A DNA stretch of 64,000 nt from an uncultured Planctomycetota bacterium (lineage in GTDB: Bacteria; Planctomycetota; PLA2; JAEUHO01). The position numbers were made by a program, and so were the translations under genes. The number at the start of each line of letters is the position of its first letter. The first letter of the stretch is position 1. The stretch covers positions 448,001 to 512,000 of the forward strand of contig CAVVXN010000002.1 of assembly GCA_963752285.1 (NCBI GenBank), read 5' to 3'. Positions 11,575 through 34,301 of the stretch are shown piece after piece. The notes under the pieces were generated by a model. The model saw only the letters and a program-made list of their open reading frames with translations, was not told where the DNA came from and did no database searches.

Positions 11575-13683
11575 CTACACGTGGAGCCCGTGCCGGCGCT
11601 GGTGGAGCCACCAGCCCGCGCCGAGCCCCAGGACCGCGAGCTCCGCCGCGTAGAAGATCACCAGGCCGTTCATCACGCCCTGCGTGAACCCGTACGCGTG
11701 CAGGCCGATCCCGAGCAGGTTGATGCCCCACCACGAGAAGGCCACCACCCCGGCCAGCGCGACCGTGGCCATCGCGAACCCGAACGGCTTCAGGATGCCG
11801 CCGAGGCGCCCGTGGATCATCGCGAGCTGCCACAGCACGATCATCAGCGCGCCGTTCTCCTTGGGGTCCCAGCCCCAGAAGCGGCCCCACGACTCGTTCG
11901 CCCAGATGCCGCCGAGGATCGTCCCCACCGTGGTGAGGATCAGCGCGAACCCGAGCGTGCCGTAGGTCATCCCGTTCACGACGCGGAAGAAGCCCTGGTC
12001 CCGCTTCGCCAGCCCGAACACGCGGCCGAGCACGTATACGTGCGCGAACGCCGCGGCGAGGAGGCTCGCCATGTAGCCGAGCGCGATGCACGTGACGTGC
12101 GTGGACAGCCAGAAGTTCGTGTCGAGGACCGCCACGACCTTCTTCATGTTGTCTTCGCGCGTGATCGACTCGTAGCCGTGCGCCACGAGGAGGCCCAGGA
12201 ACCCCAGGAGGGGGACGAGGGCCAGCGCGATCCGGCGCCTCGTCAGTCCCTCGACGACGAGCCCCGTCAGCGCGGCGGTCGCGGTGACGAACAGGACGGT
12301 GTCGTAGAGGTTCGTCATCGGCGGGTGCTCGCGGATCAGGCAGCGCTCCACGATGCCCCAGATGACGAAGAGCGTCGTCCCGCCCAGGAGCCCGATCAGC
12401 GTGGCGTCGTACCACGGGATGCGCCGGCGGAAGAACCACGACACCGCGACGAACACGAAGAGCGTGAGGTAGATCCACTGCGAGTTCCCGAACGGGTTCA
12501 GCCGGAAGAGCTGGACCTCGCGCGGGATGTTCCGGTACTTGCCGATGTCGCGCGCGAGCGCCTCCGCGTCGCGCTCGAGCGTGCGGGCCCGGTCCGTGAA
12601 CGTCTTCGGGTCGCTCCGCGCCTCGTACAGGCCCTCGAAGTCCTTCAGCATGTCGAAGTGGCCCGCGACCGGGGGGAGGTCGGGACGTTCGGCCGCCTGG
12701 TAGAGGACCTCGTACGGCGTGAGCCACGCGTCGGCCTGCATATCGAGATCGCTGCCCGCGTCCTGCGCCGCCTGGATGGCCGCCATCCGCTCCTTCGAGG
12801 GCGGGAACACCGCGAGCGCGCTGGAGCTCCCCTTCGTCTGGAGCATCTGCTCGTACCCGTTCACGGCCGCGTCGAGCTCGGGGTGCTTCGGACCGGCGGC
12901 CTGCCGAAGCGCCGTCCGCAAGGCCTCGGTGATGCGCGGTGCCGCACGGACCAGCTCCGGGAACGAGACCTCGGCCTTCCCGCCGAGCTGCTGGCGGAGG
13001 ATCGGGAGGTCGGGGACGGCCACGGGCGCGCGGGCCCAGCCGATCCACGTCGTGAACTCCTCGAACTCCATCACGGCGTGGTAGAGCGTCACGATGCCGC
13101 CCTGCACCGGGTCGCGCTGCTTCTCCTCGATCTGGCCGTACTGGCGCGCCAGCGCGACCAGCCGGGTCCGACCGGGGGCCAGGAACTCGTACGCGTAGTA
13201 GTCGCGCTTCTTCTTCTCGACGGGCTTGCCGGACTCGTCGGTGAGGTGGCTCGGGTCGAGGCCCAGCGCGGTCAGCACTTCGTCGTTGTCGATCAGGAAG
13301 CACTCGTAGCGCCGCGCGGACTCGGGGAAGAACAGGCAGTCGAGGAGGAACTCGACCGGCCCGATCCGTCGGCCGTCCGGCGTCTTCACCGAACGGTGCT
13401 GCGCCATCCGCTCGAGGGCGTACGTGGCCATCGTGTTGAGCGGCTTGACGCGCCCGCCCTCCTGCACGGGGATCTCCGCGAAGAGGTCCACGACCTCGGC
13501 GGGCCACGCCGCGGGCCACGTGTGCGCCGGGGTCGAGGAGGTCGCGGCCGGGCCCTCGGCGGCGCGGGCCGGCGCGAGGCCCAGCGTCGCCGCCGCGACG
13601 CCGGCCGCGAGCAGCCCGCCCAGCAGGGCGAGCCGTCCGAACGGCACCCGGCGGTTCGGGGCGGAGTGGGTGGTGTCCCTCAT
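11575..13683 (-). CDS. ccsA: System II cytochrome c biogenesis protein CcsA/ResC
   Basis: WWD motif GGIWANESWGRFWGWDPKE, WLSTHV, GLHAYG, PVQEGGRVKPL periplasmic motif; ATG at 13683. Confidence 0.92.
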   Translation of the reverse strand: MRDTTHSAPNRRVPFGRLALLGGLLAAGVAAATLGLAPARAAEGPAATSSTPAHTWPAAWPAEVVDLFAEIPVQEGGRVKPLNTMATYALERMAQHRSVKTPDGRRIGPVEFLLDCLFFPESARRYECFLIDNDEVLTALGLDPSHLTDESGKPVEKKKRDYYAYEFLAPGRTRLVALARQYGQIEEKQRDPVQGGIVTLYHAVMEFEEFTTWIGWARAPVAVPDLPILRQQLGGKAEVSFPELVRAAPRITEALRTALRQAAGPKHPELDAAVNGYEQMLQTKGSSSALAVFPPSKERMAAIQAAQDAGSDLDMQADAWLTPYEVLYQAAERPDLPPVAGHFDMLKDFEGLYEARSDPKTFTDRARTLERDAEALARDIGKYRNIPREVQLFRLNPFGNSQWIYLTLFVFVAVSWFFRRRIPWYDATLIGLLGGTTLFVIWGIVERCLIREHPPMTNLYDTVLFVTATAALTGLVVEGLTRRRIALALVPLLGFLGLLVAHGYESITREDNMKKVVAVLDTNFWLSTHVTCIALGYMASLLAAAFAHVYVLGRVFGLAKRDQGFFRVVNGMTYGTLGFALILTTVGTILGGIWANESWGRFWGWDPKENGALMIVLWQLAMIHGRLGGILKPFGFAMATVALAGVVAFSWWGINLLGIGLHAYGFTQGVMNGLVIFYAAELAVLGLGAGWWLHQRRHGLHV

Positions 13684-15064: not shown

Positions 15065-16279
15065 TCACCAGGACAGGGAGCGGCAGAAGGTCTCGAAGTT
15101 CGGCTTCTGGCCCTTCACGACGTCCGCCGGGCCCGTCAGCTTGACGAAGATCGCGCTGTCGGGGCGGAGCAGCACGAACCCGAGCATCTCGGCGGGGTCG
15201 ATCTTCTCGCCGCCCTGTCCCATCCCCGGCGTGTAGCTCCCGTCGATCGTGACGAGCACGCCCTCCATCCCGTTCGCGGTGAGGCGCGGCAGCGCCTGGA
15301 TCTCTGCGCTCGTGAGGGGGGGCTGTCCCATCTGCCCGCGCCAGCGGTTGAGGTTCATGTCGAGCCCGCCGCCGTCTCCGTTGAGCACGGTGACGTAGCA
15401 CTCCGTGTCCGAGGTGTCCTTCGGGACGTAGGTGACCTCGCGCATCGGCTTCGCGGGCTGCGGGAGCCAGGACGGCGGAGCGTCCCAGTGGAGCCCGCTG
15501 TCGCCCTCGCCGGCGGGCGGCATCTCCCCGGTCCCTCCGGGGAGGGCCGGATGACCCGGCGGCAGGTCGCTCGGGGCGCTGGACGCGCTCGCCATCGGTG
15601 CCCACGTTATCGAACGGGCGAGGGCGTCGAAGTGCGCTCGCTCCTGCGCGATCACGTCCGCGGGCCCGACCATCTTCAGGAAGAGCGCGGCCATCGGCAG
15701 CTCGAGGATCAGGCCCACCATCTTCGCGTGCTCGAGCGGCGCGGAGCCACCCATGCCGGCGTAGGCCCCGTCGAGAACCACCTCCTTCGCCGGCCGGCCG
15801 AGGATCTCGCCATCGGGCAGGTTCTGGACGGCCGCGTCCTCCTCCGGGGGGAGCCCCATCTGCTTTCGCCAGCGGTTCACGTTCTCGACGAGCCCGCCGG
15901 CGGCGCCGGGAAGGACCACGAGCGAGCACTCGGCGTCGGGCGATCCCGGGACCTTCCAGCTGCCCTTGCGCATCTCCGCCGGCGGCTCCTCCGTCCACCC
16001 CTCGGGCGTCGTCCAGGTCCACTCCCGACCGCCCGGGTCGCCGGCGCTCGCGTGCGGGCCCGCGGTGGCCCGGCCGAAGCGCTGGTCGCTCGACAGGCTG
16101 CTGGTGGGGGAGGACGAGGCGCTCGACCGCTCCCGGACGTCGTCGATCGTGTACGTCTTCTCCTTCTTGCCGCACGCGCCGAGGAGGGCCGAGAGCCCGA
16201 GGAGCACGAGCCCCGACAGCGCCAGCCGGGGCCGCGGGGTCGGGAGGGGGCGGCGTCGGGTCCGCGAAGCGTGCTTCAT
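15065..16279 (-). CDS. Lipoprotein with two tandem copies of an uncharacterised domain, first gene of the ccs operon
   Basis: Lipobox LGAC; repeats WTTPEGW..ENVNRWRKQMG..FLKMVGP and WDAPPSW..MNLNRWRGQMG..FVKLTGP; linker LPPGHP. Confidence 0.75.
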   Translation of the reverse strand: MKHASRTRRRPLPTPRPRLALSGLVLLGLSALLGACGKKEKTYTIDDVRERSSASSSPTSSLSSDQRFGRATAGPHASAGDPGGREWTWTTPEGWTEEPPAEMRKGSWKVPGSPDAECSLVVLPGAAGGLVENVNRWRKQMGLPPEEDAAVQNLPDGEILGRPAKEVVLDGAYAGMGGSAPLEHAKMVGLILELPMAALFLKMVGPADVIAQERAHFDALARSITWAPMASASSAPSDLPPGHPALPGGTGEMPPAGEGDSGLHWDAPPSWLPQPAKPMREVTYVPKDTSDTECYVTVLNGDGGGLDMNLNRWRGQMGQPPLTSAEIQALPRLTANGMEGVLVTIDGSYTPGMGQGGEKIDPAEMLGFVLLRPDSAIFVKLTGPADVVKGQKPNFETFCRSLSW

Positions 16280-16966
16280 GGCGGTGGCGACTCCGTTCTC
16301 CGACCCGCCGGGCGCCCGCCTCCGCCCGCGGCGCGCGCCGGGTCGGACCGCGCGGCGCGCCAGCCGGGAAGGGGAGGAGCGAGGGGGACGGAAGGCCGAG
16401 GATCGATCCGGGTCCGATGGGGCGGACCGCGCGCCGCGAGCGGCGCCAGGGGCCCGGCCGCGCGCCAGGGGCCGGATCCGGTTCGTGATGGTCCTACGCC
16501 CGTCGGAGACGAATCGCCGTACGATACCTCCGCTTCGGCCCGGGCTCCCCTCGGGAGACGACCGCCCGCCCCGCCTGGGACTGGGCCTTTGAGCCCTCCT
16601 CGCGACGCCGCACCATCCGCTGCGCGCGGCGCCCGCGATCCGTCCCGGAGGGGGCGACCCGGGTGCCGTCGGGACCCCTCTCTCCACGGCCCCTTCCGGG
16701 CCCCACGCCCCGCCATTTCGGGGGGGTGTGGCCCTCGGGGTGATCGTCCGATGACGCATTCTGGGTACCTACCGGAGGATCCGGGGCCGCTCCGTGCGGC
16801 CCCCGGATTGGGTCGGCCCTTCCCAAACTGCTGGTGAACAAGGGCTTGGGTAATTCGTCCGCGTGGTGCCACCCGGGGTGCGTCGCTTGCTAGGCCCTGG
16901 GGCAGGACCGGCAAAGATGAGTTCGGGGTCCGGAGGTCCGGGCCCCGGTCAGGAGCGGTACCCGGA

Positions 16967-17398
16967 GTGCTCACCCAGGCGGTCTGCCACGCAGCGAGGG
17001 CCCTCTCGTACCTCGCGTCCCACGGACGCGAGGCGGTCCTCGTCCGTGACCTGGCCGACCGGACGGGCATCCCCGGGCCGTATCTCGCAAAGATCGTGAA
17101 TCAGCTCTCCCGCAAGGGCCTGGTGCAGACGCAGCGGGGTGTCGGCGGCGGCGTCGCGCCGCTCCGCGACCCCGCCACGCTGACGCTCTACGACCTCTGC
17201 GTCGCGCTCGGCGATCCGATCGTCGAGACGCGTTGTCTGCTCGCGAACGCCACGTGCTCCGACGAGAGGGCCTGCCCCGCGCACGGCTTCTTCGTGGGGC
17301 ACCGCGAGAAGGAGCTCGAGTTCCTTCGCTCGACGACGCTCGCGCACCTGGCGGCCTTCGAGGCCGACCAGGAGAGGAGGGCGAAACAGACCGCTTGA
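16967..17398 (+). CDS. Rrf2-family transcriptional regulator, probably Fe-S binding
   Basis: wHTH IPGPYLAKIVNQL..GLVQTQRGVGGG; CLLANATCSDERACPAH (Cys3-His, IscR-like spacing); GGAG RBS before GTG. Confidence 0.92.
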   Translation: MLTQAVCHAARALSYLASHGREAVLVRDLADRTGIPGPYLAKIVNQLSRKGLVQTQRGVGGGVAPLRDPATLTLYDLCVALGDPIVETRCLLANATCSDERACPAHGFFVGHREKELEFLRSTTLAHLAAFEADQERRAKQTA

Positions 17399-17468: not shown

Positions 17469-18107
17469 ATGAATCGTCGCTGGCTCGCACCCCTCGCGCT
17501 CGGGGCCGCCGTCGTCGCGGTCTTCGCGCTGGTCGAGAGCGGCCGCTCCGCGGCCGCGGACGAAGGCGCCACGCCCGAGTTCGTCGGACAGACCGCCTGC
17601 AAGCAGTGCCACTTCAAGGAGCACAAGAGCTGGAAGAAGACGGTCCACGCGAAGGCGCTGGACCTCCTGAAGCCCGGCGAGGCGGCCGATGCCAAGAAGA
17701 AGGCCAACCTCGACCCGCAGAAGGACTACAGCAAGGATGCGACCTGCCTCCCGTGCCACACGACCGGCTACGGTCAGCCCGGCGGGTACCCGGAGGTCAA
17801 GGACGCCTGGAGCGAGGACGAGCAGAAGTGCGCGGACGTCAACGAAGGCGTCGGCTGCGAGGCCTGCCACGGCGCGGGCAGCCAGTACATCCCGTTCAAG
17901 AAAGACCACGACGGGGAGTACAAGCGGTCCGAGATCGCGAAGCTCGGCCTCAAGACGCCGGTCACCGCCGCGAACTGCACCGGCTGCCACAAGGCCGAGG
18001 GCAACCCGACGGTCGGGCCCGACTACAAGTTCGACTTCGAGACCATGAAGACGAAGCCGGAAGCCATTCACGAGCACCAGAAGCTCAAGAAGGACCACGA
18101 GGGATAG
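17469..18107 (+). CDS. Periplasmic tetraheme cytochrome c554-like protein
   Basis: Signal peptide; 4 CxxCH (CKQCH, CLPCH, CEACH, CTGCH); SWKKTVHAKA, KKKANLDPQKDY, GVGCEACHG, YKFDF, HEH motifs recalled from cytochrome c554. Confidence 0.88.
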   Translation: MNRRWLAPLALGAAVVAVFALVESGRSAAADEGATPEFVGQTACKQCHFKEHKSWKKTVHAKALDLLKPGEAADAKKKANLDPQKDYSKDATCLPCHTTGYGQPGGYPEVKDAWSEDEQKCADVNEGVGCEACHGAGSQYIPFKKDHDGEYKRSEIAKLGLKTPVTAANCTGCHKAEGNPTVGPDYKFDFETMKTKPEAIHEHQKLKKDHEG

Positions 18108-18227: not shown

Positions 18228-19787
18228 GTGTTTCGATCCGTCTTGGTGTCGGGCTGCCTCGTGGCGGCCTGGATCCTGGCTGGGTCCCTGGCCTGGGCCG
18301 AGCCGCCTTCGGCGGGCGCGGCGCCCGCCGCGCCCGTAGCGCCTCCGAGCGCGAGCGGGCAAAACGACGCTCCGCCCCCCGGCGCGGACGCGGCGACCGC
18401 CGCCGCCGCCGCCGGGGTCTCCGACTCTGCCGCGCCGCCTCCGCCTCCGAACCCCGCGGCGAACGCCGAGGCGAGCTACGGGGGGATCACGCCCGGCATG
18501 GTGGACCGCGCCGTGCACGCCGACGCCTTCCGAAGCGAGGCGCCGCTCTGGCAGGGCCAGGCGCGCCTGCGGTACCGGGGTCGCTTCACCTCGGAGGACG
18601 ACGCCTCCGACCACGACCTGTACGCGTACCTCAAGCTGAAGTACCGCGACGAGATGCTCCCGGGCTGGTCGGCCTCCTTCCACGGCCGGGCGACGCTCGA
18701 CATCGGAAGCTTCGGGAACCGCGACGGGTTCCATCCCTTCGACTCGATCACCGACACGTACGAGCACCGGCTGAACGGGCGGATCTACCACGCGTACGTG
18801 AACTACCGAAGCCCCCGGAGCCTGGTCGAGGAAGTGCGGCTCGGGCGGCAGTACTCCGACGTCGGCGAGTTCATCCGCTACGACGGCGTCCGCGCGACGA
18901 GCCGCCCCCTCGGGTGCGGTTGGTGGCAGGTGTCGGCGTTCGGCGGGGTCCCCTCGTACCTGTTCGACGACGGGCGCGAGGGCGACTGGACCGTGGGCGG
19001 GTCCGTGAAGGGCCGCCCGTGGCGCGCCACGGGCGTCACGCTGAGCTACACGCATGCTCACGACCAGAACGCCGTCTACGGCCACGTGGACGACAACTTC
19101 GTGGACCTGACGGTGGACCAGCGGATCGGCATGAACACGCTGGTCCGGGGCACGTACCAGCAACTGAACGCCGATCCCCGGGCGCTCCGCCTGATCTTCG
19201 ACACCTTCTTCCCCGCGCGGGACGTCACGGTGCGCGGTTCGTTCTACTCGGTGCTCTCCTCCCAGACCGAAGCCGTGTACGACTTCGACTACTACTACGC
19301 GGAGGCGCTCTCGCTCGAGCCGTACTGGCTCGGGACGCTGGCCGTCTCGAAGGGCCTCGGCGACCTCTTCACGGTCGAGGCGGGCGTCAACGAGCGCATG
19401 CTCTACGACCAGGCGGACGAGGGCACCTTCAACCGCGAGTTCACGGAGGTCTACGGGACCGTGGCCTCCTCCGACTGGCTGCTCCGGGACCTCCGCCTCG
19501 CGCTGACCGGCGAATGGTGGAAGGCGAGCGGCGACCGGATATGGACCGCCACGTTCGACCTCGACTGGCGCCCCTGTCCGGCGTGGCGCCTGAGGCTCGG
19601 CACCGACTACGCCGCGTACCGGTACGACCTCTTCACGAACTCCGAGCGGGTCCACGACCTCGGAGGCTTCGTGAGGGTCACGTGGCGGCCTCGCTCCTGC
19701 TGGGAGGTCGATGTCCGGCTGCGCGTGGACGACGACGACGACGGGACCTGGACGCAGCTCGACGCCGGGCTGACGTTCGATTTCTGA
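18228..19787 (+). CDS. Outer-membrane beta-barrel protein (putative porin of a porin-cytochrome complex)
   Basis: Signal peptide, Pro/Ala linker, many amphipathic aromatic-rich strands, VRLGRQY motif, C-terminal GLTFDF (terminal Phe); between two multiheme cytochrome genes. Confidence 0.8.
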   Translation: MFRSVLVSGCLVAAWILAGSLAWAEPPSAGAAPAAPVAPPSASGQNDAPPPGADAATAAAAAGVSDSAAPPPPPNPAANAEASYGGITPGMVDRAVHADAFRSEAPLWQGQARLRYRGRFTSEDDASDHDLYAYLKLKYRDEMLPGWSASFHGRATLDIGSFGNRDGFHPFDSITDTYEHRLNGRIYHAYVNYRSPRSLVEEVRLGRQYSDVGEFIRYDGVRATSRPLGCGWWQVSAFGGVPSYLFDDGREGDWTVGGSVKGRPWRATGVTLSYTHAHDQNAVYGHVDDNFVDLTVDQRIGMNTLVRGTYQQLNADPRALRLIFDTFFPARDVTVRGSFYSVLSSQTEAVYDFDYYYAEALSLEPYWLGTLAVSKGLGDLFTVEAGVNERMLYDQADEGTFNREFTEVYGTVASSDWLLRDLRLALTGEWWKASGDRIWTATFDLDWRPCPAWRLRLGTDYAAYRYDLFTNSERVHDLGGFVRVTWRPRSCWEVDVRLRVDDDDDGTWTQLDAGLTFDF

Positions 19788-19801: not shown

Positions 19802-21181
19802 ATGGCCTTCTTGCGCAATGACGGCCTGTGGCGCTGGGCCATCGTCGCCGTCGCCTTCGGCGTGGTGGGGTGCGCCGTCGCGCTGAACGCCCCGCGCCCC
19901 ACGATGGTTCCGGCGAACGTGTACCGCGCGCCTGCGCCCCCGCTCCCCGCCGGTCGGGCCGTTTTGGGCCCCCGCCTTCCGCACGAGAAGCACGCGGACC
20001 TCGGCCTGGGCTGTACCGACTGCCACGGGGTGGACGAGAAGACCGGCGAGCCCACGTACCCCAAGCCCGAGGTCTGCCTCGACTGCCACCAGGACATTCA
20101 GGACGAGGCGAAGACGCCCCCCGAGAAGCGCGTCGAGAACCTGTTCTTCGACCCGCAGGGCCTGCCGCGGTGGAAGCGCTCGATCGTGGGCTACCCGGCG
20201 GACGTCCGTTTCTCGCACAAGACCCACGCCACGGCCAACCTCGAGTGCGCCGAGTGCCACGGCAAGATGAAGGGCACGGAGCGGGTCCAGCACAAGGTCC
20301 TCCAGAAGAGCCAGTGCCTGGCCTGCCACCAGGAGCGGGACGTCTCGCTCCAGTGCGCCATCTGCCACCGCGCGACCCGCGCCGACGTGCCCCCGCCGAG
20401 CCACCAGCCCCAGACCGACTGGGAGGTGCTGCACGGGAAGACGGTTCTCGCGGCCGAGGCCCAGGGGACGAGTTCCTCCTGCCAGTACTGCCACGCCACG
20501 TCCTACTGCAACGAGTGCCACCAGGCCCGCAAGCCGTCGTCCCACGGCTTCGACTGGGAGCGACGTCACGGCCAGCTCGTCTGGCAGGCGGGGAGCCCCG
20601 ACGCCGCGAGCTGCACCTTCTGTCATCGCGACGCCGCGTTCTGTGACGGCTGCCACCAGAACCGGAAGCCCAGCTCCCACGACCACCTCTGGGAGAAGAG
20701 ACACGGCGTGCTGGCCCGCGCCGGCGACATGAGCGGCATGGCGCGGTGCACGTTCTGCCACGACAAGCCTTCCTTCTGCGAGGACTGCCACAAGGAGAAC
20801 CCGCCGCGCGACCACACCGACATCTTCCGGACGCGGACGCACGGCATGATGGCCTCCCTCGACCGCACGCGATGCATGGTCTGCCACCAGACCGACTTCT
20901 GCGTGCGCTGCCACGAGGACACCGCACCGCGCTCCCACCGCGGGCTCTGGGCCCACCTGCGGGACACGCACTGCATGCAGTGCCACTTCCCGATCCAGCA
21001 GGAGCCCGAGTGCGCGGTGTGCCACAAGCAGAACCCCACCCACGACACCGCGCCGGACCAGCCGCCGAGCCACACGCCCGGCCTCAACTGCCGTGCGTGT
21101 CACACGCCCGTGGGCGTGGGGGGGGCGCCGCCGTTGCGGCACGTTGACAACGGGACCCCCTGCCAGTTCTGCCACCACTAA
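19802..21181 (+). CDS. 17-heme cytochrome c, probable lipoprotein
   Basis: 17 CxxCH counted; possible lipobox VVGC; N-terminal c3/c7-like part (HEKH, FSHKTH) then repeated PxSH..W...HG..CxxCH..CxxCH diheme units. Confidence 0.9.
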   Translation: MAFLRNDGLWRWAIVAVAFGVVGCAVALNAPRPTMVPANVYRAPAPPLPAGRAVLGPRLPHEKHADLGLGCTDCHGVDEKTGEPTYPKPEVCLDCHQDIQDEAKTPPEKRVENLFFDPQGLPRWKRSIVGYPADVRFSHKTHATANLECAECHGKMKGTERVQHKVLQKSQCLACHQERDVSLQCAICHRATRADVPPPSHQPQTDWEVLHGKTVLAAEAQGTSSSCQYCHATSYCNECHQARKPSSHGFDWERRHGQLVWQAGSPDAASCTFCHRDAAFCDGCHQNRKPSSHDHLWEKRHGVLARAGDMSGMARCTFCHDKPSFCEDCHKENPPRDHTDIFRTRTHGMMASLDRTRCMVCHQTDFCVRCHEDTAPRSHRGLWAHLRDTHCMQCHFPIQQEPECAVCHKQNPTHDTAPDQPPSHTPGLNCRACHTPVGVGGAPPLRHVDNGTPCQFCHH

Positions 21182-21286: not shown

Positions 21287-21302
21287 TGCGTGCGGGCGCG
21301 GC

Positions 21303-21670: not shown

Positions 21671-21753
21671 ACCGTTTTGGGCGCTCCGGGAAAGGTTTGG
21701 GTGGGGCGTCGCGTTCGGGATCATGTCGCGAACGTCGTTCGGGAGTCGGTATC

Positions 21754-25042: not shown

Positions 25043-25870
25043 ATGCGCCGCATCCACCCCCCGAGCCGCTGGGCGGCGATCCTCGTTCTCGCCACGCTGG
25101 CGGGGGTCCCCTCCGCGCGTGCCGGCGACGACACCGGGGACGCGCATCCGACCCTCCGCGACTTCCAGGCGACGGGGCAGTACGTCCTCTGGGCCAAGGA
25201 CGAGGCGGTGGACCAGGCGACGATCTACTACTCGGAGCCCTCGGCGGCGTATTTGATCGTCACGGAGGCCTTCCCCGACGCGGTGCTGATCCTGCCGCGC
25301 ACCCGTTGTGTCGAGTCGGTCAAGTCGGACGAGATGATCGAGCGGGACGACGGCGGCATCGACGTGAAGAAGGAGGCGATGCCCTGCGGTCTCGGCCGGT
25401 TCCGCCTGGAGGGAGCCGACGTGGTGTTCGACGTCGGCGACATCCCCGCCCGGCTGAAGCCGAAGCCGCCCCTGCTCGGCGGGCATCGGCGCGACGCGCT
25501 CCTCGAGCACTCACCGGAGTACGCGCGGGGCGCGAAGGCCTACAAGCCCGACATGGACGTCATCGAGCAGATGAAGAAGGCCAACAAGAAGGCCCGCATC
25601 CAGATCTTCTTCGGCTCGTGGTGTTCGTTCTGTGCCCGCTTCGTTCCCCACATCCTGCGCGTGGAGGAGGAGCTCCAGGGCACCGACCTTTCGTTCGAGT
25701 ACTTCGGCCTGGAGCCGCCGCCGGCGGCGTGGGTCGGCGAGACGGCGACGAAGATGGGAATCAAGAGACTCCCCACGGGCATCATCTTCGTGGACGACAA
25801 GGAGATCGGCCGGATCATCGGGACCGAGTGGATCCGCCCCGAGGTCGCGCTGGCGCGCTTCCTCCGCTGA
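25043..25870 (+). CDS. Exported thioredoxin-family protein
   Basis: Signal peptide; FFGSWCSFC CxxC motif; IKRLPT cis-Pro region; EIGRI. Confidence 0.8.
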   Translation: MRRIHPPSRWAAILVLATLAGVPSARAGDDTGDAHPTLRDFQATGQYVLWAKDEAVDQATIYYSEPSAAYLIVTEAFPDAVLILPRTRCVESVKSDEMIERDDGGIDVKKEAMPCGLGRFRLEGADVVFDVGDIPARLKPKPPLLGGHRRDALLEHSPEYARGAKAYKPDMDVIEQMKKANKKARIQIFFGSWCSFCARFVPHILRVEEELQGTDLSFEYFGLEPPPAAWVGETATKMGIKRLPTGIIFVDDKEIGRIIGTEWIRPEVALARFLR

Positions 25871-25997: not shown

Positions 25998-28526
25998 CTA
26001 GGGCAGCGCGAAGCTCGCGCCCGACAGCGCGCCGAGCGTGTGGGTGAACACGTCCGAGACGAAGCCCGGGTTGTGGAAGGACTTGCTGCGGTCCGCCTCG
26101 AGCATGGAGAAGTTCCAGCCCGCCTTCGCGAGCACCACCTCGGGGTTCCCGGCGAAGAGGCCGTTCAGGTAGAGCGAGCCCATCGGGAGATCGAGCGGGT
26201 CGAGGATCGTCGTGCCGCCGTGGAGCTGCACGTGGTAGATCCAGGAGCCGCCGATCTGGATGTTCATGCCCTGCCGCCCGTGCGACTCGGCGAACTCCAA
26301 CCCCCCGACGACCGACGTGGAGTCGATCGTGGCGGCGAGCGGGGTCGCCTCGTCGAGCGTCGAGCCGGTGAGGGCGATGCGGTATCCCGCACCGACCAGC
26401 GACTGGATCTCGTCCGCGAGCTTGGACTCGATGGTGAGCTTCAGGTCCTCGATGCTGGTCTCGAACTGCTTCTCGAGCGTGCCGCCGTCGAAGGCGCCGT
26501 GGCAGTTCGAGCAGATCGAGACGTCGGCGGTGAAGCCGTGGTTGGCGCCCGCGCCGCTCAGGCTGTAGTCCGCCGGGGGCGGGCTCATCTGGACGTGGCA
26601 GGTGACGCAGGTGTCCTTCAGGAAGCCGTGGGGGCCGCGGCTCGGCGTCGAGACGAAGAACATGTTCTGGCCGAAGAGCACGTCCGTCTGCGGGCCCTGG
26701 TGGGGCGCCCGGTCGGGCGAGTCGAGGCCCGTCACGTCGTTCCTCAGACCGCGCCGGCCGTTGTGGCACTCCATGCACATCGCGCCCTTGCCGACGTTCG
26801 TCGCGCTGAACCCCGACTCGAGGTTCATCGCGTTGTCCTCGACGCGCATGTGCGCGTCGTTCGCGTCGCCGGAGACCGTTCCGACGTTGTGCGGGTCGTG
26901 GCAGACCACGCACGTGATCGGGTGGACCGTATCGGCCGTCGGCGCGGCATCGACCACCCCGTCCGGCAGCCAGTCGAGGAAGCCCTGTGCGGAGTGGCAC
27001 TTCGCGCAGCTCTTGTTGGTGCCCTCAGCGATGGCGACCTCGTAGTTGCCGTGCGCGCTGTTCTCCCACTGCTGGAAGCGGCCGTGCCGCGGCGGTTCGC
27101 CGTGGCAGGAGCCGCACACGTCCGACGCCATGGAAACGCGGTACACGTCGTTGCCCATGTGGCTGCTGCCCTGGCCGTTCGGGCCGTGGCAGTTCTCACA
27201 CTGGATGTTGCCCTTCTGGGCGACCGTGGGCCACGTCGAGAGCACCTTGGCCCAGTTCCCCATGTCCATCGTCATGTGGCCACCGGGGAACATGCCGGCG
27301 TAGAAGTCGGCGTACTGCGGCGTGTCGTCCAGCCCGTCGTTCGTCGCGTCGAGGTCGAAGCCCACGGTGTGGCACGCGAAGCAGCTGCTGCTGTAGTGGT
27401 CGCTCGTGTTCAGGTTGTCCTTGAAGATCGAGGCGTGCCCGGTCTTGGCCCAGTCCGTGAATTTCTCGGGGAAGATGCCGGAGTGACAGGACATCGTGCA
27501 GGACATCGTCGGGTTGCCGGCGGCGTCCATGCCGTCGATCCCGCCGACCCACTTGCCGGCGTAGACGTCCAGGTTGACCGTCGTGCTCGTCGCGAGGTCC
27601 GTCACCGCGAGGGTGTACTTCCCCGTGACGTCGGGCACGAACCAGGGGTACCGGGTCGTGGCGTCGGAGAGCGTCGCCGTGGAGGTCCCCGGCGCCGCCT
27701 GGATCGTCCAGTCGTACGACGCCTGGGTCTTCCCGCCGAGCAGGACCGGCACGCCGACCGGCACGTTCTGGAGGCCCGTCGTCCAGGCGACGAAGGGCAG
27801 CTTCGCGGCGACCGCGGCCGTCGCCTTGTACGTGCCGCTCGTCGTCGTCACGGTGCACTGGAGGTCCACCGCCGCGCCGAGGTCGGCGACCTCGGGGTTG
27901 AGCGGGACCACCCGCCAGCGCTCGAGCTGCTCGATGCTGCCCACGAGGGCGGTCTTGTAGGCCGCGATCGCGGCCAGCGTCACGTCCGTCGTCGCCGCGG
28001 TCGGCGCCGTGATCGTCGCCGTGGCGCCCGTGCCCGTCTGCGACCAGGAGTAGCCGCTGACCGTCGATCCGTCGTAGATCGTCGGCGTGGCCGTCAGCGC
28101 GAACGACGCCCCGGGAGCGGGGCCCGTCGGCGCGCCCGTGATCTTCACGGTCACGTGCGCCGTCGGCATGAGGTCGAGGTTGCACGTGGTCGTGCCGGCT
28201 GCGAGGACGCTCACGCTGTCGGCGCCCGCCGTGAACCCGGTCGGCGCGCAGGCGAGTCCGTAGCTGCCCACCGGCAGCGTCGCGGTGTAGTGACCGGTCG
28301 CGTCGGTCACGGGGTTCACACCCGCCACGGCGGGCGTGAGGGTAACGGGCGCCCCTGCGAGGGGAGCGCCGCTCATGGCGTTGGTCACCTGACCGGTCAG
28401 CGTGCCGGTGCTCGCGCCGGGGAGGCCGGGCGCGCCGTTGCTGCCGGAACCGCAGGCGGCCAACGACAGGCAGAGGAAGGTGGCGAGCAGCCACCCGCCT
28501 CGATGGAAGCGAGTCGCAGGCGTCAT
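25998..28526 (-). CDS. Lipoprotein multiheme cytochrome c (8 CxxCH + 1 CxxxCH) with carboxypeptidase-regulatory/Ig-like stalk
   Basis: Lipobox LAAC; Thr-rich beta-sandwich domains (GTLTGQVTNA..TDATGHY; FVPDVTGKYTL); CTMSCH, CFACH, CENCH, CGSCH, CAKCH, CVVCH, CMECH, CVTCH, CSNCH; AGGAG RBS. Confidence 0.88.
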   Translation of the reverse strand: MTPATRFHRGGWLLATFLCLSLAACGSGSNGAPGLPGASTGTLTGQVTNAMSGAPLAGAPVTLTPAVAGVNPVTDATGHYTATLPVGSYGLACAPTGFTAGADSVSVLAAGTTTCNLDLMPTAHVTVKITGAPTGPAPGASFALTATPTIYDGSTVSGYSWSQTGTGATATITAPTAATTDVTLAAIAAYKTALVGSIEQLERWRVVPLNPEVADLGAAVDLQCTVTTTSGTYKATAAVAAKLPFVAWTTGLQNVPVGVPVLLGGKTQASYDWTIQAAPGTSTATLSDATTRYPWFVPDVTGKYTLAVTDLATSTTVNLDVYAGKWVGGIDGMDAAGNPTMSCTMSCHSGIFPEKFTDWAKTGHASIFKDNLNTSDHYSSSCFACHTVGFDLDATNDGLDDTPQYADFYAGMFPGGHMTMDMGNWAKVLSTWPTVAQKGNIQCENCHGPNGQGSSHMGNDVYRVSMASDVCGSCHGEPPRHGRFQQWENSAHGNYEVAIAEGTNKSCAKCHSAQGFLDWLPDGVVDAAPTADTVHPITCVVCHDPHNVGTVSGDANDAHMRVEDNAMNLESGFSATNVGKGAMCMECHNGRRGLRNDVTGLDSPDRAPHQGPQTDVLFGQNMFFVSTPSRGPHGFLKDTCVTCHVQMSPPPADYSLSGAGANHGFTADVSICSNCHGAFDGGTLEKQFETSIEDLKLTIESKLADEIQSLVGAGYRIALTGSTLDEATPLAATIDSTSVVGGLEFAESHGRQGMNIQIGGSWIYHVQLHGGTTILDPLDLPMGSLYLNGLFAGNPEVVLAKAGWNFSMLEADRSKSFHNPGFVSDVFTHTLGALSGASFALP

Positions 28527-28981: not shown

Positions 28982-31381
28982 CTACGGACGGGCGACGCTC
29001 GGCGTGCCGCCGAGGTCCACGATCGCGTCGTAGAGCAGCTGACGCATGTACTTCCCGTTGTGGATGAAGCCGCAGGGCTCCTTGATCGAGAAGTGGTAGT
29101 TGTAGGCGGCCTCGAGGAGCTGCGCGTCGAAGTTCGAGAACTTGTTCGCGTTCGTGTCCTCGCCGGCGTCGAGCACGCCGTTCCCGTTCGTGTCGATGAA
29201 CCAGTAGGGGTAGGCCGTCTCGCTGTAGACGATGCCCGAGCCGAGGTTGGCCGAGGCGTACGTCTGCATCTGCGCGAGCAGCTCACCCTGCAGGATCACG
29301 ATCTGGTCGTGGTTGTTCTTCGGTCCGAACTCGAGGGTCTCGAACGTCGAACCCGAGTGGCACAGCGTGCAGTCCGAGACCTGCGGGAGGAAGTTGTGGT
29401 CGGCGTTCGAGCCGCGGAGGTGGCAGCCGATGCAGGTGTTGAGCCCGGCGCTCACGTGGAGGCCGTTCCAGCTCGTGGGACCCGCATAGGTCTTGCCGGA
29501 GTACTGGTACCCGCCGTTCACGTTCGTCCCGAAGAAGGACGCCGCGGCGGCGAAGTAGTGGATGTTCAGGAAGGAGTAGGGGGGCAAGGTCGTGTCGATC
29601 TTGCTCTGGACCGAGACGCCCGATTCGCGACCCTGGTGGCACGTCATGCAGATGTTCGACGCGTTGCCCAGAGAGGCCGTGAGGCCCGACGGGAACGTCA
29701 CCGGCTGGAGGGCCGGGTTCGCGGCGAGGTCGTCGTACCGGGTGTCGTGGTTCGCGAACAGGTTGTTCGAGTCGTGACACGTGATGCAGTCCGTGGCGCC
29801 GAGGATCTTCGACGCCGCATCGACCGATCCGTCCGCGGCGAAGTCCACGAACCCGGGCGCGCTGTGGCACTTCGCGCAGCTCGTGGGGATCTCCGGCGGG
29901 ACGCCCGTGTCCCAGTGGCGGTACGGCGCGTCCGCGTTGTTGCCGTGGCCCGAGAGGTGCCACTGCTGCGACTTCCCCGCCTCGCTGAGCGGGGCCGTGT
30001 ACCCCGGACGGCCCGGAGCGGGCGTCATCGGGGTCTCCCCGAGGTCGGCGATCGAGTCGGTCAGGTACTGGCGCGCGTACACGCCGTTGTGGATGAAGCC
30101 GCAGGGCTCCTTGATCGCGACGTGGTAGTTGTAGGCGGCCTTGAGGAGCGTGGCGTCGAACTGGGTGAACTTGTTCGCGTTCGTGCCCTCGGCCCCGTCC
30201 ACGACGCCGTTCCCGTTCGTGTCGATGAACCAGTACGGGTAGGCGTCGGCGCTGTAGGCGATGTGCAACCCCGTGTTCGTGAACGCGTAGGCCTGCATGG
30301 CCTGCAGGAGCTGGGTCTTGTTGGCCTCGATCGCCGTGCGGTTCACGGACGGCGAGCCGCCCAGCGTCTCGAAGGTCGAGCCGCTGTGGCAAGTGGTGCA
30401 CGCGCTCAGGTCGGGCTCGAGCGTGTGGTTCCGCTCGTCGCCGCGCATGTGGCAGCCGACACAGGTCTTCTTGTCCGCCGTGTGCGACGGGAACGTGTTC
30501 CGGGCGACGTACGTCTTGCCCGGGTACTGGTAGGCGCCGCGCACCTCGCCGCCGAAGTACGTCGCGGCCGCCGCGAAGTAGTGGATGTTGATGAACGAGT
30601 AGGGCCCGGGGCCTCCGGCGATCGCGTCGTCCACCTGGACGGTCGAGGCGCGGCCCTGGTGGCACTGGGCGCAGAGGTTGCTGTTGTCGAAGAGGGAGAC
30701 CGTGTCGCCCGACGGGAAGGTGATCCAGTCGAGGTTCGGGTACATCGCGTGGTCGTCGTACGCGGTGGCCGGGGGACCGCCGAGGGCGCCGGGGTGGCAG
30801 CCCGTGCACGCCAGCCCGAAGGGCAGCGGCTGCGGCAGGTCCGTCAGCCCGGTCTGGTTGTAGTGGTCGAAGCCGGACCCGGAGTGGCACCGCGAGCAGG
30901 TGCTGTCCACCTGGCCGCTCGTGTCCCAGTGCCGCCACGGCTCGTCGCCGACCATGCCGTGTCCGCTCTCGCCCCACTGCTGGGAGATCAAGCCCCCGCC
31001 CACCGTGTAGCCGGCGGTCTGGACGGCCGAGGCGTTGCCGCTGGCGTCCACGGCGAAGTACTTGATGACCGTGTTGTTCGGCGCCGAGATCGCCGCCGAG
31101 TAGACGGCGCTCGTGTCGTCGGGCACCGAGAGGTCGGTCGTGTAGTAGATCGTGGGGTTCGCGTCACGCGCGTCGGAGGCGTGCAGCGTCACGTTCTGTG
31201 TCGAGCTGTACCAGCCCGGAGCGGGACTGGCCGAGACGGTCGGCGCCGTGGTGTCCGGCCCCGGGGGCGTGGGCGGATTGCTGCTTCCGCCGCCACCGCC
31301 GCAGCCGGCGACACCCAATGCGAGGCCGAGCACGAGGGCGGTCAGCACCTGCCCCCCATGCGACCTGGTTGCCTTGGTCAT
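28982..31381 (-). CDS. Lipoprotein decaheme cytochrome c made of two tandem pentaheme modules, with N-terminal chitobiase/Fn3-like domain
   Basis: Lipobox VAGC; PAPGWY..TIYYTTD..IKYFAVD domain; 10 CxxCH as 5+5; each module ends AAYNYH..KEPCGFIHNG; GGAGAG RBS before ATG 31381. Confidence 0.9.
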   Translation of the reverse strand: MTKATRSHGGQVLTALVLGLALGVAGCGGGGGSSNPPTPPGPDTTAPTVSASPAPGWYSSTQNVTLHASDARDANPTIYYTTDLSVPDDTSAVYSAAISAPNNTVIKYFAVDASGNASAVQTAGYTVGGGLISQQWGESGHGMVGDEPWRHWDTSGQVDSTCSRCHSGSGFDHYNQTGLTDLPQPLPFGLACTGCHPGALGGPPATAYDDHAMYPNLDWITFPSGDTVSLFDNSNLCAQCHQGRASTVQVDDAIAGGPGPYSFINIHYFAAAATYFGGEVRGAYQYPGKTYVARNTFPSHTADKKTCVGCHMRGDERNHTLEPDLSACTTCHSGSTFETLGGSPSVNRTAIEANKTQLLQAMQAYAFTNTGLHIAYSADAYPYWFIDTNGNGVVDGAEGTNANKFTQFDATLLKAAYNYHVAIKEPCGFIHNGVYARQYLTDSIADLGETPMTPAPGRPGYTAPLSEAGKSQQWHLSGHGNNADAPYRHWDTGVPPEIPTSCAKCHSAPGFVDFAADGSVDAASKILGATDCITCHDSNNLFANHDTRYDDLAANPALQPVTFPSGLTASLGNASNICMTCHQGRESGVSVQSKIDTTLPPYSFLNIHYFAAAASFFGTNVNGGYQYSGKTYAGPTSWNGLHVSAGLNTCIGCHLRGSNADHNFLPQVSDCTLCHSGSTFETLEFGPKNNHDQIVILQGELLAQMQTYASANLGSGIVYSETAYPYWFIDTNGNGVLDAGEDTNANKFSNFDAQLLEAAYNYHFSIKEPCGFIHNGKYMRQLLYDAIVDLGGTPSVARP

Positions 31382-31647
31382 GCTTCTCTCCATGGTCGCG
31401 GCGCGCCGGACTCTTCCGGCGCGGTCGCGCATCGGGTCTGCCTGGCCGCGCTTGGCCACCGCGAACGGAGGGCTCCCACCGTGGGCCTCCTGGGATTCGT
31501 GGGGAGCGGACGCGCGGGTCATTGCACCTACCCTTGCGTCACGATGGTACGCGGTTGCATCCCGAACGGCCCCGGAAAACACCGGGACTTCCGGACGGAA
31601 TCACCGCTTCTTCATCATGTCCGGCCTCGACTCTCGCATTCGAACAC

Positions 31648-31662
31648 TGAGAGTCAGTCTCA
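31648..31662. promoter_or_regulatory. Fur-like box
   Basis: TGAGAGTCAGTCTCA, 12/14 informative positions match TGAGAATnATTCTCA; about 270 bp upstream of the decaheme gene. Confidence 0.45.
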
Positions 31663-31721
31663 ATCTGCGCGGAAGATAGAGGACCGTTTCAGTACGGTTC
31701 CGCCGTGGGCCCCCGGACGCC

Positions 31722-34301
31722 TCAGGGCGCGTGGTACGCGTGGCTCTCGCGGTAGAGCGCGAGGCGCTGTTGCAGCCCCTGGACGAGCGGGCTCGTGCTG
31801 CCGTCGATGAGACGAAGCCCTTGTTCGGCCGCGTGCGCGGCGTCTTCGTAGCGGCCGCTCTCGGCCAGCGCGGCGGCGAGGGCGTCGAACGGTTCGGGAC
31901 GAGCGCCCTTGCTGACCTCCACGGCGTGCTGCGCCAGCGCGACGGCGCGCGCGCCGTCGCGGATGTTCGCGTCGGGCGAGGTGGAGAGCAGCCACGCCAG
32001 CATCGAGAGGGCCCGCACGTCGTCTGGAGCGCCCGCGACGAGGCTCTGGAGCTGGGTCTTCACGTCCTCGGCGCGCTGGAGGCGGCTGTAGACGGTCACG
32101 AGCCCCCATCGGGAGAGCGGGTCGTCGGGCTTCGCCGCGAGCGCCTTGTGGTAGTAGGCCGCCGACTCCTCGAGGCGCCCGACCTGTTCGAGGGCTTGGC
32201 CGGCGTTCTGCATGGCCCCCACGAGGCTCGGGTCGAGGCGCAGGGCCGCGAAGAGGTGGGGGATCGCGTCCTTCGGCCGCTGGAGCGCCATGTAGGCCGT
32301 CCCGAGGTTGTTCTCGGCGAACACGTTCTTCGGATCGAGCTCGAGCGTGCGGCGGTAGTTCTGGATCGCTTCGTCCCAGCGACCGACGTGGCTCAGCGCC
32401 TCGCCGAGGTTCAGGTACGCCTTCGTGAAGTCGGGCTCGATCGCGATCGCCTTCTCGAGGAGCGGGATCTCGTCGGCGTACTTCCCCTCGCGCTTCAGGT
32501 CCGTCGCCTCCCAGAAGTACCGCTGGTGCTCGACCGCGGGCACCTCGATGTGCTGCAACGCGTCGTACGGGGCGTTCATGAACTCGGGGATGTTCACGGC
32601 GCGGTTGGCCGCCGTCGAGCCCGGGACGAGGATCGCCGGGGTGTCGTTCCCGTCCGCGTCCACGTGCGTCAGGAACATCTGCGTGTACGGCGTGTTGACC
32701 TTCGACGAGAACACGAGCCAGCGCGAGTTGGGCGACCACGAGTGCCACGAGTTCATGCTGTTCGTGTTGCACCGCATCTCGCGGACCTCGCCGCCCTCGA
32801 AGGGCACGATGCACAGCCGGCCGTCCGGACGCATCAGCTGCCCGTTCTGGCACCTCGTGAAGACGATCCACCTCCCGTCCGGCGAGACCTTCGGGAACGT
32901 GTTGCTCCAGCCGTTCGCGCTGGCGCCGCGGATCGGTTCGGCGTCGCCGGCCGGCTGTCCGCCCCGGAACGGGACCCGGTACAGGTCGTACTGGATCTTG
33001 GGCTCGTTGGGGTCGTTCGGGTGGGTGGCCAGCGGGAGGCCCGAGGCGTAGGGGTCGAACGCCCGGGCGCGGGCGAACACGATCCACTTGCCGTCGGGGC
33101 TCCAGACGCCGTCCGTGTGGACGTACTCGGGGTCGTCGGCCCCGGGCACCGCCTTCATCTCGCCGTTCGAGCGGTCGTAGTACGCGAGGATCCCCCGCGT
33201 GGGATAGAAGACCTGCAGGTAGCGGTAGTCGAGGAAGTTCGAGACGTAGAGCGCCTCGTTCAACGTCGTGATCACGTACCGGCCGTCCGGGGACACGCGG
33301 GACAGGAACCCGATCGTCTTGTGGCCCTTCGGCTTGTTCGCGTACGAGTTCCACGTGATGACGTCGTCGATGTCGATCCGCATCTGGGGCGACACGGCCT
33401 TGATGGCGTAGGTGCCCTTGTCGCCCTGGGGACCGTCCACGTCCATGCCGAACGTCTTTCCGTCGCGTGAGAACGAGTGGCAGTTTCCGCACGACGGCAT
33501 GTGCGTCAGGACGAGCCGCGTCTCGGGCCGCGTGATGTCGCGCAGTCGCCACGCGATCCTCGGGATCGCGTTCTGGCCGAGGGGCTGGATCTGCCCGCGC
33601 TCGCCCTTGCCCGGCATGAGCGGGACGTCGCGGTAGAAGATGGGTGCGCCGACCGGGTCGGTCGAGGTCTGGATCCCGACCGCGCCGCGCGACAGGGGCT
33701 GGTCGGGCGCGTCGGACCGGTAGCCCACCCAGCGCACCTGGGCCGGCGCCGACGTGCTGCGCCGCTGGATCTCGTCCCACACGGCGCGCGCCGGCGTCCA
33801 CGAACGGGCGGACGCCTGGTACGGAGTCGGCTGGTAGACCTCGTTCGTGTCGCCGAGCGCTTCCGGGTCCACCTCGCCTTGCGGGGGCGGGGCCCCGGGG
33901 ACCACCGCGTGGATCGGCCGCGCTCCCGGATCCTCGAAGCGGATCTCGACGAGCCAGGTGTCCGCCTGGGTCTCGTCGTGCCAGAGGAAGGTAGGCGGCA
34001 CCATCCCCGGAGGGAACACCGAGCCGTCCCGGGGATCGTCTACCACCACGCTCGCCTCGCCCCCGGCCGGGGTCCCGAGCGCCTCGGCCTCGGCCCGCAC
34101 CATCGCCGTCGCCGCGCCGTCGTCCGCGAGCACGCCGCCCGCGTCCCACAGCGGGTCGTGAGAGGCGGCCTCGACCCCGCCCATCGCCCTGCCCTCGGCG
34201 CCCGCGGGGGCGGTCGCCTCCCCCCGCCCGCAGGCGACCAGCAGCCAGGAGGCCGCCGCGGCCAGGAACAGACGGCGGAGGCGAGGCGGGGAATCGGTCA
34301 T
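31722..34301 (-). CDS. Lipoprotein with a single CxxCH, TolB-like/PD40 propeller and TPR repeats
   Basis: Lipobox LVAC; MPSCGNCHSFS; repeated SPDG/WSPDGKWIVF/WHSWSPNSRW; C-terminal TPRs (AENNLG.A). Confidence 0.82.
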   Translation of the reverse strand: MTDSPPRLRRLFLAAAASWLLVACGRGEATAPAGAEGRAMGGVEAASHDPLWDAGGVLADDGAATAMVRAEAEALGTPAGGEASVVVDDPRDGSVFPPGMVPPTFLWHDETQADTWLVEIRFEDPGARPIHAVVPGAPPPQGEVDPEALGDTNEVYQPTPYQASARSWTPARAVWDEIQRRSTSAPAQVRWVGYRSDAPDQPLSRGAVGIQTSTDPVGAPIFYRDVPLMPGKGERGQIQPLGQNAIPRIAWRLRDITRPETRLVLTHMPSCGNCHSFSRDGKTFGMDVDGPQGDKGTYAIKAVSPQMRIDIDDVITWNSYANKPKGHKTIGFLSRVSPDGRYVITTLNEALYVSNFLDYRYLQVFYPTRGILAYYDRSNGEMKAVPGADDPEYVHTDGVWSPDGKWIVFARARAFDPYASGLPLATHPNDPNEPKIQYDLYRVPFRGGQPAGDAEPIRGASANGWSNTFPKVSPDGRWIVFTRCQNGQLMRPDGRLCIVPFEGGEVREMRCNTNSMNSWHSWSPNSRWLVFSSKVNTPYTQMFLTHVDADGNDTPAILVPGSTAANRAVNIPEFMNAPYDALQHIEVPAVEHQRYFWEATDLKREGKYADEIPLLEKAIAIEPDFTKAYLNLGEALSHVGRWDEAIQNYRRTLELDPKNVFAENNLGTAYMALQRPKDAIPHLFAALRLDPSLVGAMQNAGQALEQVGRLEESAAYYHKALAAKPDDPLSRWGLVTVYSRLQRAEDVKTQLQSLVAGAPDDVRALSMLAWLLSTSPDANIRDGARAVALAQHAVEVSKGARPEPFDALAAALAESGRYEDAAHAAEQGLRLIDGSTSPLVQGLQQRLALYRESHAYHAP

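Follow-up and report, generated by a model that had tools for sequence, protein, structure and literature searches.

The gene cluster at positions 11575 to 34301 of a 64,000-nucleotide stretch of DNA from an uncultured Planctomycetota bacterium (contig CAVVXN010000002.1; the whole stretch is hereafter the window) probably encodes a trans-envelope electron conduit that serves mainly outward respiratory transfer, its surface location, direction and activity being predicted. A first-pass annotation, made from the sequence alone, had described the cluster as a complete, self-contained quinone-to-surface pathway for extracellular electron transfer (EET). The porin-cytochrome conduit, the CbcL-type protein and the likely surface cytochromes of that description hold up, and its self-containment does not. 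We regard the locus as a real and probably functional porin-cytochrome system of a known kind, new in its part list and in the architecture of its heme wire. Open reading frames (ORFs) called with a codon model trained on the host genome (G000; 4.64 Mb, 89% complete) include all 13 gene types of that annotation, each at the position it had assigned, and Pfam and NCBIfam scans of the window proteins support the following features.

11575..13683, minus strand: CcsA/ResC-type System II heme attachment protein, 702 aa (PF01578 over cut-off; TIGR03144 below cut-off)
13680..15014, minus strand: ResB-like System II protein, 444 aa (PF05140)
15065..16279, minus strand: two-repeat lipoprotein in the maturation operon, absent from the earlier gene list (no Pfam match; halves 39% identical)
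16740..16755, no strand: candidate operator, a near-palindrome in the divergent promoter region (aligned in G000, G001 and G009)
16967..17398, plus strand: Rrf2-family regulator (PF02082 and TIGR00738 over cut-off)
17469..18107, plus strand: c554-like tetraheme cytochrome with signal peptide, predicted periplasmic shuttle (PF13435; NF043010 below cut-off)
18228..19787, plus strand: 22-strand outer-membrane barrel of the Kuenenia-type porin family (AlphaFold2 model; 30% identity over 360 aa to the G162 porin)
19802..21181, plus strand: 17-heme lipoprotein wire (alignment, PDB profile matches, motif spacing, 30% identity to Kuenenia CAJ74788.1)
21754..23826, plus strand: CbcL/MtrH/MtoC-like protein, 11 c-type motifs and a cytochrome b561 domain (PF01292 over cut-off)
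23994..25019, plus strand: MauE/DoxX-like membrane protein (PF07291)
25043..25870, plus strand: exported thioredoxin-like protein with CxxC (weak thioredoxin matches below cut-off)
25998..28526, minus strand: stalked 9-heme lipoprotein, predicted OcwA/OmhA/NrfA-superfamily fold (best profile match 6I5B; model pLDDT 71.5)
28982..31393, minus strand: 10-heme lipoprotein with two pentaheme modules (lipobox; halves 52% identical)
31722..34301, minus strand: monoheme TolB-propeller/TPR lipoprotein (PD40 and TPR)

The count of 51 CxxCH motifs and one CxxxCH given earlier is reproduced (c554-like protein 4, wire 17, CbcL-like protein 11, the two large lipoproteins 8+1 and 10, TolB/TPR protein 1), and 1000 residue shuffles of each protein gave largest counts of 0-2, far under those observed. 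The locus holds about 30% of the 169 CxxCH motifs of the host genome, in which 23 proteins carry at least two. The suggestion of a probable planctomycete host is borne out, as all ten loci retrieved with a close porin alignment belong to Planctomycetota, Planctomycetia or Planctomycetales. In addition, a planctomycete primer matches the host 16S gene with one mismatch.

The barrel and its cognate cytochrome form the core of the system. We examined 61 loci in 59 genomes, that is, the window, all 20 non-self matches of a single-protein barrel search and 40 picks from a profile search of 401 genomes of the phylum, chosen for contig extent and family spread; these rows span more than 20 families, and kin among them are not independent. 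The cytochrome directly follows the barrel in 61 of 61 loci (one cytochrome being cut by a contig end), with its first motif 126-244 nt past the porin end. Neither Pfam nor NCBIfam recognizes the barrel, whose family comprises 963 representatives at 50% identity. A single-protein search finds it in 12 of 24 genomes of the same family and in 6 of 11 of the sister family, and a profile finds it, some matches being partial, in 87 of 401 Planctomycetota genomes. When ten homologues were looked up, an organism name was returned for one, from Omnitrophota.

The AlphaFold2 model of the barrel (pLDDT 85.7) has 22 strands, no plug domain, a proline-rich N-terminal linker and a terminal phenylalanine. 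Fold searches with it were not discriminating because the nearest solved folds are generic 18-24-strand transporters and MtrB ranks 30th (Z 13.7); a search of the ESM Atlas returned clusters without specific names. Modelling the barrel together with the cytochrome, which had been proposed as a check, returned no interface; its score was 0.36, the best of three controls scoring 0.00, which is weak support. Among benchmark pairs, 116 of 157 solved and 2 of 215 mismatched ones reached the mark, those at or below 0.60 being only 18 solved pairs and both mismatches; run agreement was at least 0% of contacts and partner pLDDT at least 64. The generic fold leaves some room for a role of the pair in uptake or assimilation, such as reductive iron solubilization or charge storage, with the barrel perhaps exporting or displaying the lipoprotein rather than sheathing it. 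Such a role would suit the lipoprotein nature of the partner, the upstream regulator from the Rrf2 family, which includes Fe-S and iron sensors, and the anammox genomes in which the pair stands alone. We consider it very improbable, given that the barrel model lacks a plug, that a quinone-linked CbcL-type gene is present in 19 of 60 loci, that rrf2 occurs at this site in three genomes only, and that 50 hemes would be a costly means of acquiring iron.

The partner cytochrome was described earlier as a 17-heme protein. The 17 motifs are there, but the protein is not plainly periplasmic, being a predicted lipoprotein (VVGC, Cys24). Of 17 aligned near homologues, 16 retain the lipobox cysteine and the 23-heme one lacks it, and under a permissive pattern a lipobox-like cysteine is found in 38 of 40 further partners; in the other two, the hydrophobic stretch also ends in cysteine. 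From its N-terminus, the wire consists of a pentaheme head of ActA/c7 type, which resembles ActA of alternative complex III (PDB profile match, E 1e-18), four diheme repeats of 45 residues, each with two extra histidines, and a tetraheme tail. Across the 61 rows, partners have 13 motifs in 37 cases, 12 in 2, 14 in 3, 15 in 9, 17 in 7, and 19 and 23 in one case each, one being cut. Of the 19 complete partners from the window's order, 17 carry 3, 4, 5 or 7 diheme repeats, and in this order repeat number changes at least seven times on a quick tree; outside the order, 0 of 41 partners gain hemes through repeats. For four of these 41 rows, all with 13 motifs, spacing drift led a simple repeat counter to return 1 or 3, and the 15 motifs in G273 reflect extra N-terminal hemes. 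Porins of f1 and of the sister family f2 as a single clade gave p 0.515 in an approximately unbiased (AU) test, so the expansion may have arisen once or several times. The diheme-repeat expansion of the wire within this order is, as read from these alignments, new here. A barrel whose size does not change cannot house repeats of variable length, so it should be threaded by either head or tail. We favor the tail, since its motif spacing is nearly fixed, in contrast to the length-variable repeat region, and by analogy with MtrA.

The closest described relative of the pair is found in anammox bacteria. The window pair is 30% identical in both members to a Kuenenia-type pair (E 3e-40 for the porin and 1e-31 for the cytochrome), and the 338-aa, 14-motif partner in G162 falls into one cluster with Kuenenia CAJ74788.1. 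Kuenenia has a two-gene porin-cytochrome conduit (Pcc), Kuster_4024/4025, with a cytochrome of 338-344 aa and 14 hemes (PMC4245776), and its porin is listed as 8-17% identical to the other 27 porins and 14% to OmbB (PMC4245776 Table S1). From these features, rather than from a locus tag, we infer that the G162/CAJ74788.1-type pair is Kuster_4024/4025. In the anammox family (f33), 15 genomes match the barrel, and 3 of 3 tested carry full matches to hydrazine synthase alpha. In contrast to the two-gene Kuenenia cluster, the window has 17 hemes in the wire and adds CbcL-like and c554-like proteins and two surface-type lipoproteins. Moreover, the Kuenenia cytochrome is called periplasmic in PMC4245776, whereas the sequences carry a lipobox-like cysteine. 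Shi et al. (2014) define a Pcc by a porin of 18-22 strands adjoining a multiheme cytochrome, homology to a listed member, a partner with 5-14 hemes and complex formation by the two. The window pair shows the adjacency, the 22 strands and the homology to the Kuenenia-type pair; the modelling above lends weak support to a complex, and with 17 motifs here and 12-23 across complete partners it extends the heme range.

Other known conduits are more distant. The Geobacter OmbB-OmaB-OmcB and Ext systems with CbcL share the 18-22-strand porin class, a partner cytochrome, outer lipoprotein cytochromes and a CbcL-type quinol oxidase; compared by description and published identities, the window family differs in the 12-23 hemes of its partner and in having the CbcL-like gene inside the same cluster. 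The NCBIfam Ext models match neither barrel nor partner, and the accessible portion of PMC11492766 gives no fold for OmcB. Shewanella MtrCAB/OmcA resembles the cluster in design, and true OmcA/MtrC-family proteins stand beside the pair in relatives, whereas the window barrel has 22 strands as against 28 predicted motifs in MtrB. We rejected membership of the MtrAB/MtoAB/PioAB group, given a barrel of 22 strands without a family match and a partner scoring 41 bits against the 192-bit cut-off of TIGR03508 (DmsE/MtrA); the earlier statement that the parts are not Mtr thus stands. PCC3 and PCC4, as outlined in PMC5566968, are likewise genome-predicted clusters of porin, multiheme and inner-membrane proteins, and PCC3 cytochromes are also repeat-bearing, but their membrane protein is a 300-aa, five-helix protein and not a c/b fusion. 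No stand-alone 300-aa protein with two WX3HX13H motifs was found among the called ORFs, with no profile comparison run. The peat clusters EET1-4 of Acidobacteriota and Verrucomicrobiota are also genome-predicted and of the same three-part composition (10.64898/2026.05.27.727921).

The novelty claimed for the cluster was overstated. Its pair is homologous to the Kuenenia pair already catalogued (PMC4245776), EET by anammox bacteria has been published (10.1101/855817), and both CbcL and novel multiheme clusters have been reported from non-anammox Planctomycetota (10.1101/2022.03.26.485925), in which PCC-type genes, CbcL and unassigned multiheme clusters are also described (PMC10732223, 10.1101/2022.03.26.485925). 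What that reading did not contain is the phylum-wide spread of the barrel, the repeat expansion and the swapping of surface partners with MtrC/OmcA. In a literature search that covered few subscription journals and no bioRxiv supplements, we found no description of the spread, lipobox or repeat expansion of this barrel family.

At the inner membrane, the CbcL-like protein would provide the link to the quinone pool. The CbcL/MtrH/MtoC family is defined by an N-terminal multiheme c domain (3-23 motifs) followed by a HydC/FdnI-like b domain with 4-6 helices and conserved histidines (PMC6295460), and the window protein, set against this description, has 11 motifs, PF01292 over its cut-off and the conserved histidines. 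His400, His438 and His480 are kept in 22 of 22 aligned membrane domains and His592 and His607 in 21 of 22; four membrane segments after the signal peptide pass a strict hydropathy threshold. Neighborhood counts here and below refer to the 60 loci besides the window, in the central stretch fetched, many of them cut short. The CbcL-type membrane domain is present in 19 of these and a c554-like homologue in 33. Clusters of relatives (L023, L024, L035, L036, L038) hold an extra 4- or 9-heme cytochrome, two membrane-type ORFs and second, 17-19-heme CbcL-like genes.

The first-pass annotation held that the direction of electron flow cannot be read from sequence, and we agree, CbcL-type proteins being described as working both ways (PMC6295460). 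The respiratory genes of the host include complex I, alternative complex III with an aa3-type oxidase, a cbb3-like subunit, a NorB-family protein, formate dehydrogenase and an NrfA-like gene. The simplest reading is that the host is a facultative respiring heterotroph, which favors outward electron flow, and we consider the outward direction likely. A search for RNA sequencing runs carrying the sequence listed none, which counts neither way. The same conduit could instead run inward: Fe(II), reduced humic substances or a partner cell would supply electrons, which would reach quinone through a CbcL/MtoC-type protein and then oxygen or nitrogen oxides. CbcL/MtrH/MtoC homologues occur in Fe(III) reducers and Fe(II) oxidizers alike, with no distinguishing feature given in PMC6295460 as far as its text was available, and the host has three heme-copper-family genes besides alternative complex III. 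We nevertheless judge inward flow unlikely: surface cytochromes, which these loci possess, tend to be missing from Mtr-type clusters of the oxidative kind (PMC4245776), RuBisCO was not found in the 89%-complete genome, and EET in anammox bacteria is reported as outward (10.1101/855817).

Other host genes bear on respiration. The NrfA-like gene (L147:8112-9563, G000 C5) encodes a pentaheme protein with five CxxCH motifs and no CxxCK, and the NorB-family protein (L154:3849-6158, G000 C2) has 770 aa, quinol NO reductase and NO dismutase not being distinguished. Two Rieske/cytochrome b operons with multiheme cytochromes (L137:3220-9159 and L146:5735-10434), one with an upstream flavoprotein, are possible feeders of the conduit. 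Weak hydrazine-synthase-like genes (L148:7851-10840, G000 C5; NF052342 at 70 as against 1250 bits, PF18582 partial) occur in this non-anammox host, and genes of such a kind are described in PMC10732223.

The two large lipoproteins are the putative surface end of the outward conduit. They were described earlier as stalked, with 9 and 10 motifs; both counts are correct, but a long Ig/PKD stalk (about 300 aa) is found only on the 9-heme protein, which has eight CxxCH and one CxxxCH. The 10-heme protein has one Fn3-like domain and two copies of a pentaheme module; it shares homology with the C-terminal portion of its 9-heme neighbor, whose family it matches with an hhalign probability of 99.6. The 9-heme domain has its best profile match to OcwA of Thermincola (6I5B), a surface reductase of NrfA-like build (PMC6703420, PMC7096707), and weak profile matches to octaheme nitrite reductase (ONR). 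Fold comparison of its model, in which residues 132-214 fall under pLDDT 50, ranks OcwA first (Z 10.8; root-mean-square deviation 3.0, 183 aligned), then the S-layer undecaheme cytochrome of Carboxydothermus (6QVM; Z 10.3; 5.0, 211) and NrfA (Z 9.6; 4.3, 207), the NrfA/ONR range being Z 9.0-9.6. OcwA-type reductases join an NrfA-like heme domain to a C-terminal three-helix bundle; the C-terminal helix bundle of the model and the nine motifs are apparent further likenesses to OcwA and 6QVM, from which the window protein differs in belonging to a diderm, in being an Ig-stalked lipoprotein, in a beta insertion in the helix bundle and in identity of about 25%. Single-sequence PDB searches with either lipoprotein gave no match at E 0.01.

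Genes of the 9-heme type lie near the barrel in 5 of 60 loci and of the 10-heme type in 7. In the sister family f2 (G028, G031, G032, G034), the wire gene is immediately followed by 9- and 10-heme homologues in the same orientation. In other relatives this slot holds a different protein: OmcA/MtrC-family decahemes over the TIGR03507 cut-off beside the pair make up 6 of 17 proteins scanned from near relatives, with two just under, and 15 of 42 proteins from the further loci, with one just under, in 13 of 40 loci (the 42 being 52 candidates minus 10 CbcL-like, some trimmed at the N-terminus). Neither window lipoprotein matches TIGR03507, nor does any protein in G000. It thus appears that the surface slot is filled by unrelated folds across genomes, MtrC/OmcA in many relatives and an OcwA/NrfA fold here. 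A lack of co-evolution among Pcc outer cytochromes is noted in PMC4245776, in line with interchangeable surface partners. Further multiheme lipoproteins in the host (L138:6662-8062, L141:6912-9470 and L143:7508-8749, with 7, 8 and 5 motifs) are possible surface partners.

A number of observations weigh against a complete outward path. The OcwA match lies within about 1 Z of NrfA and octaheme nitrite reductase and covers mainly the C-terminal half, Foldseek with the 9-heme model found none at E 0.001, and OcwA itself reduces nitrite weakly (PMC6703420). Both lipoprotein genes form a separate unit on the opposite strand; in G001, a genome of the same genus, about 45 kb separate the porin from the 9-heme gene, and the stretch fetched contains no 10-heme orthologue. 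Sorting of lipoproteins is unreadable from sequence, and their surface location, likely as it is, is a prediction. Five anammox loci lack a surface cytochrome within about 9 kb and any other cytochrome of at least four hemes within the 20 kb fetched. Finally, the searches that found neither RuBisCO nor NiFe hydrogenase were of an 89%-complete genome, RuBisCO being the carbon-fixation route looked for.

The superfamily fold, the weak ONR profile matches, and the divergent transcription and loose linkage of the lipoprotein genes could be accommodated if barrel and wire were a real conduit while the large lipoproteins were periplasm-facing NrfA/ONR-like enzymes acting on nitrite, hydroxylamine or a sulfur oxyanion, with no single complete path. 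We find this unlikely, as the host has a separate NrfA-like gene, the 9-heme protein has a long Ig stalk, and homologues of the lipoproteins occupy the MtrC/OmcA operon slot in relatives. Neither lipoprotein has a CxxCK motif or matches an NrfA family model; the absence of CxxCK is not decisive because the host's own NrfA-like gene has only CxxCH.

We return to the outward conduit, for which an electron path is suggested by synteny and by what is established of CbcL-, Pcc- and MtrC/OcwA-type proteins. Quinol would be oxidized at the b-hemes of the CbcL-like protein, whose 11 c-hemes would carry the electrons either to the c554-like tetraheme or straight to the wire. The pentaheme head of the lipid-anchored wire would receive them, and the diheme repeats would conduct them to the C-terminal hemes, a part of constant length that would be housed by the 22-strand barrel. 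On the outside, reduction of an external acceptor would fall to the two OcwA-fold lipoproteins; this acceptor may be an oxide of Fe(III) or Mn(IV), a humic substance or a partner cell.

The cluster is not the self-contained island described earlier: codon use is native, kin share the chromosomal site, the maturation genes are housekeeping and TolB/TPR paralogues lie elsewhere. The cluster genes range from the 9th to the 96th genome percentile of GC3s (G+C at synonymous third positions), and both G001 and the same-family genome G009 have the cluster at this chromosomal position, downstream of moxR, tatD and a HEAT gene. No integrase was found among the window ORFs scanned, and the nearest tRNA is 26 kb off. 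Horizontal acquisition as an island is thus not supported, composition being not deviant and the site shared with kin.

By BLAST, ResB is the only copy found in the genome and CcsA has no other full-length homologue, so the two probably mature all c-type cytochromes of the host; another PF01578 ORF, a short one, is located next to hemA in a different part of the genome. A CcsA-like gene is near the barrel in 12 of 60 loci. The two-repeat lipoprotein (15065-16279) is present in 8 of 60, all eight also having ResB and CcsA, which makes it a candidate for an undescribed planctomycete System II accessory protein. The gene for the Rrf2 regulator adjoins the barrel cluster in 2 of 60 loci, those of G001 and G009, and the near-palindrome at 16740..16755 lies 227, 226 and 223 bp before rrf2 in G000, G001 and G009, respectively; it is a weak candidate for an rrf2-region operator, its pattern having been built from the same three genomes. 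A MauE-like gene is found in 2 of 60 loci at threshold and a thioredoxin-like gene in 3, and the MauE/DoxX-like protein is probably an accessory in thiol handling. The TolB/TPR protein has three paralogues (50-54% identity) elsewhere in the genome and occurs in 1 of 60 loci; it is probably not a dedicated part of the conduit. The four members of this monoheme family are at 31722-34301 of the window and at 252476, 504894 and 668211 of G000 C5.

Between the wire and CbcL-like genes, 7.6 tandem copies of a GC-rich 50-bp unit lie at 21292-21674. As related arrays occur at no fewer than ten other places in the genome, we take this to be a dispersed repeat and rejected it as part of the system. Elsewhere in the window, a DUF4062/SIR2-like gene followed by an nSTAND1 NTPase with TPRs (35446-41612) resembles an anti-phage defence pair, and a tRNA-Cys lies on the minus strand at 60475-60548.

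The main value of these findings lies in the pattern across the family rather than in the single locus. It is conceivable, though we hold the idea only tentatively and think it doubtful as a whole, that this is a phylum-wide planctomycete conduit of which the anammox pair is a stripped-down form, with a wire that is lengthened by diheme units to at most 23 hemes, spans periplasm and outer membrane as one polypeptide, and docks interchangeable surface reductases of two unrelated folds, MtrC/OmcA or OcwA-type. If so, wire length would track envelope width or dispense with a soluble shuttle. The natural series of 13-, 15-, 17-, 19- and 23-heme wires on one scaffold offers a test set for wire length against envelope geometry and conductance. 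An orthologue of the Kuenenia pair is expressed in electrode-grown Brocadia (10.1101/855817), and the occurrence of homologues of the anammox pair beside MtrC/OmcA and CbcL-type genes lends independent comparative support to kuste4024/4025, a named pair relevant to anammox electrode cultures, as an electron conduit. Since about one-fifth of the sampled Planctomycetota genomes hold a barrel that is invisible to Pfam and NCBIfam, the capacity for EET may be under-counted in a phylum common in soil, sediment and wastewater.

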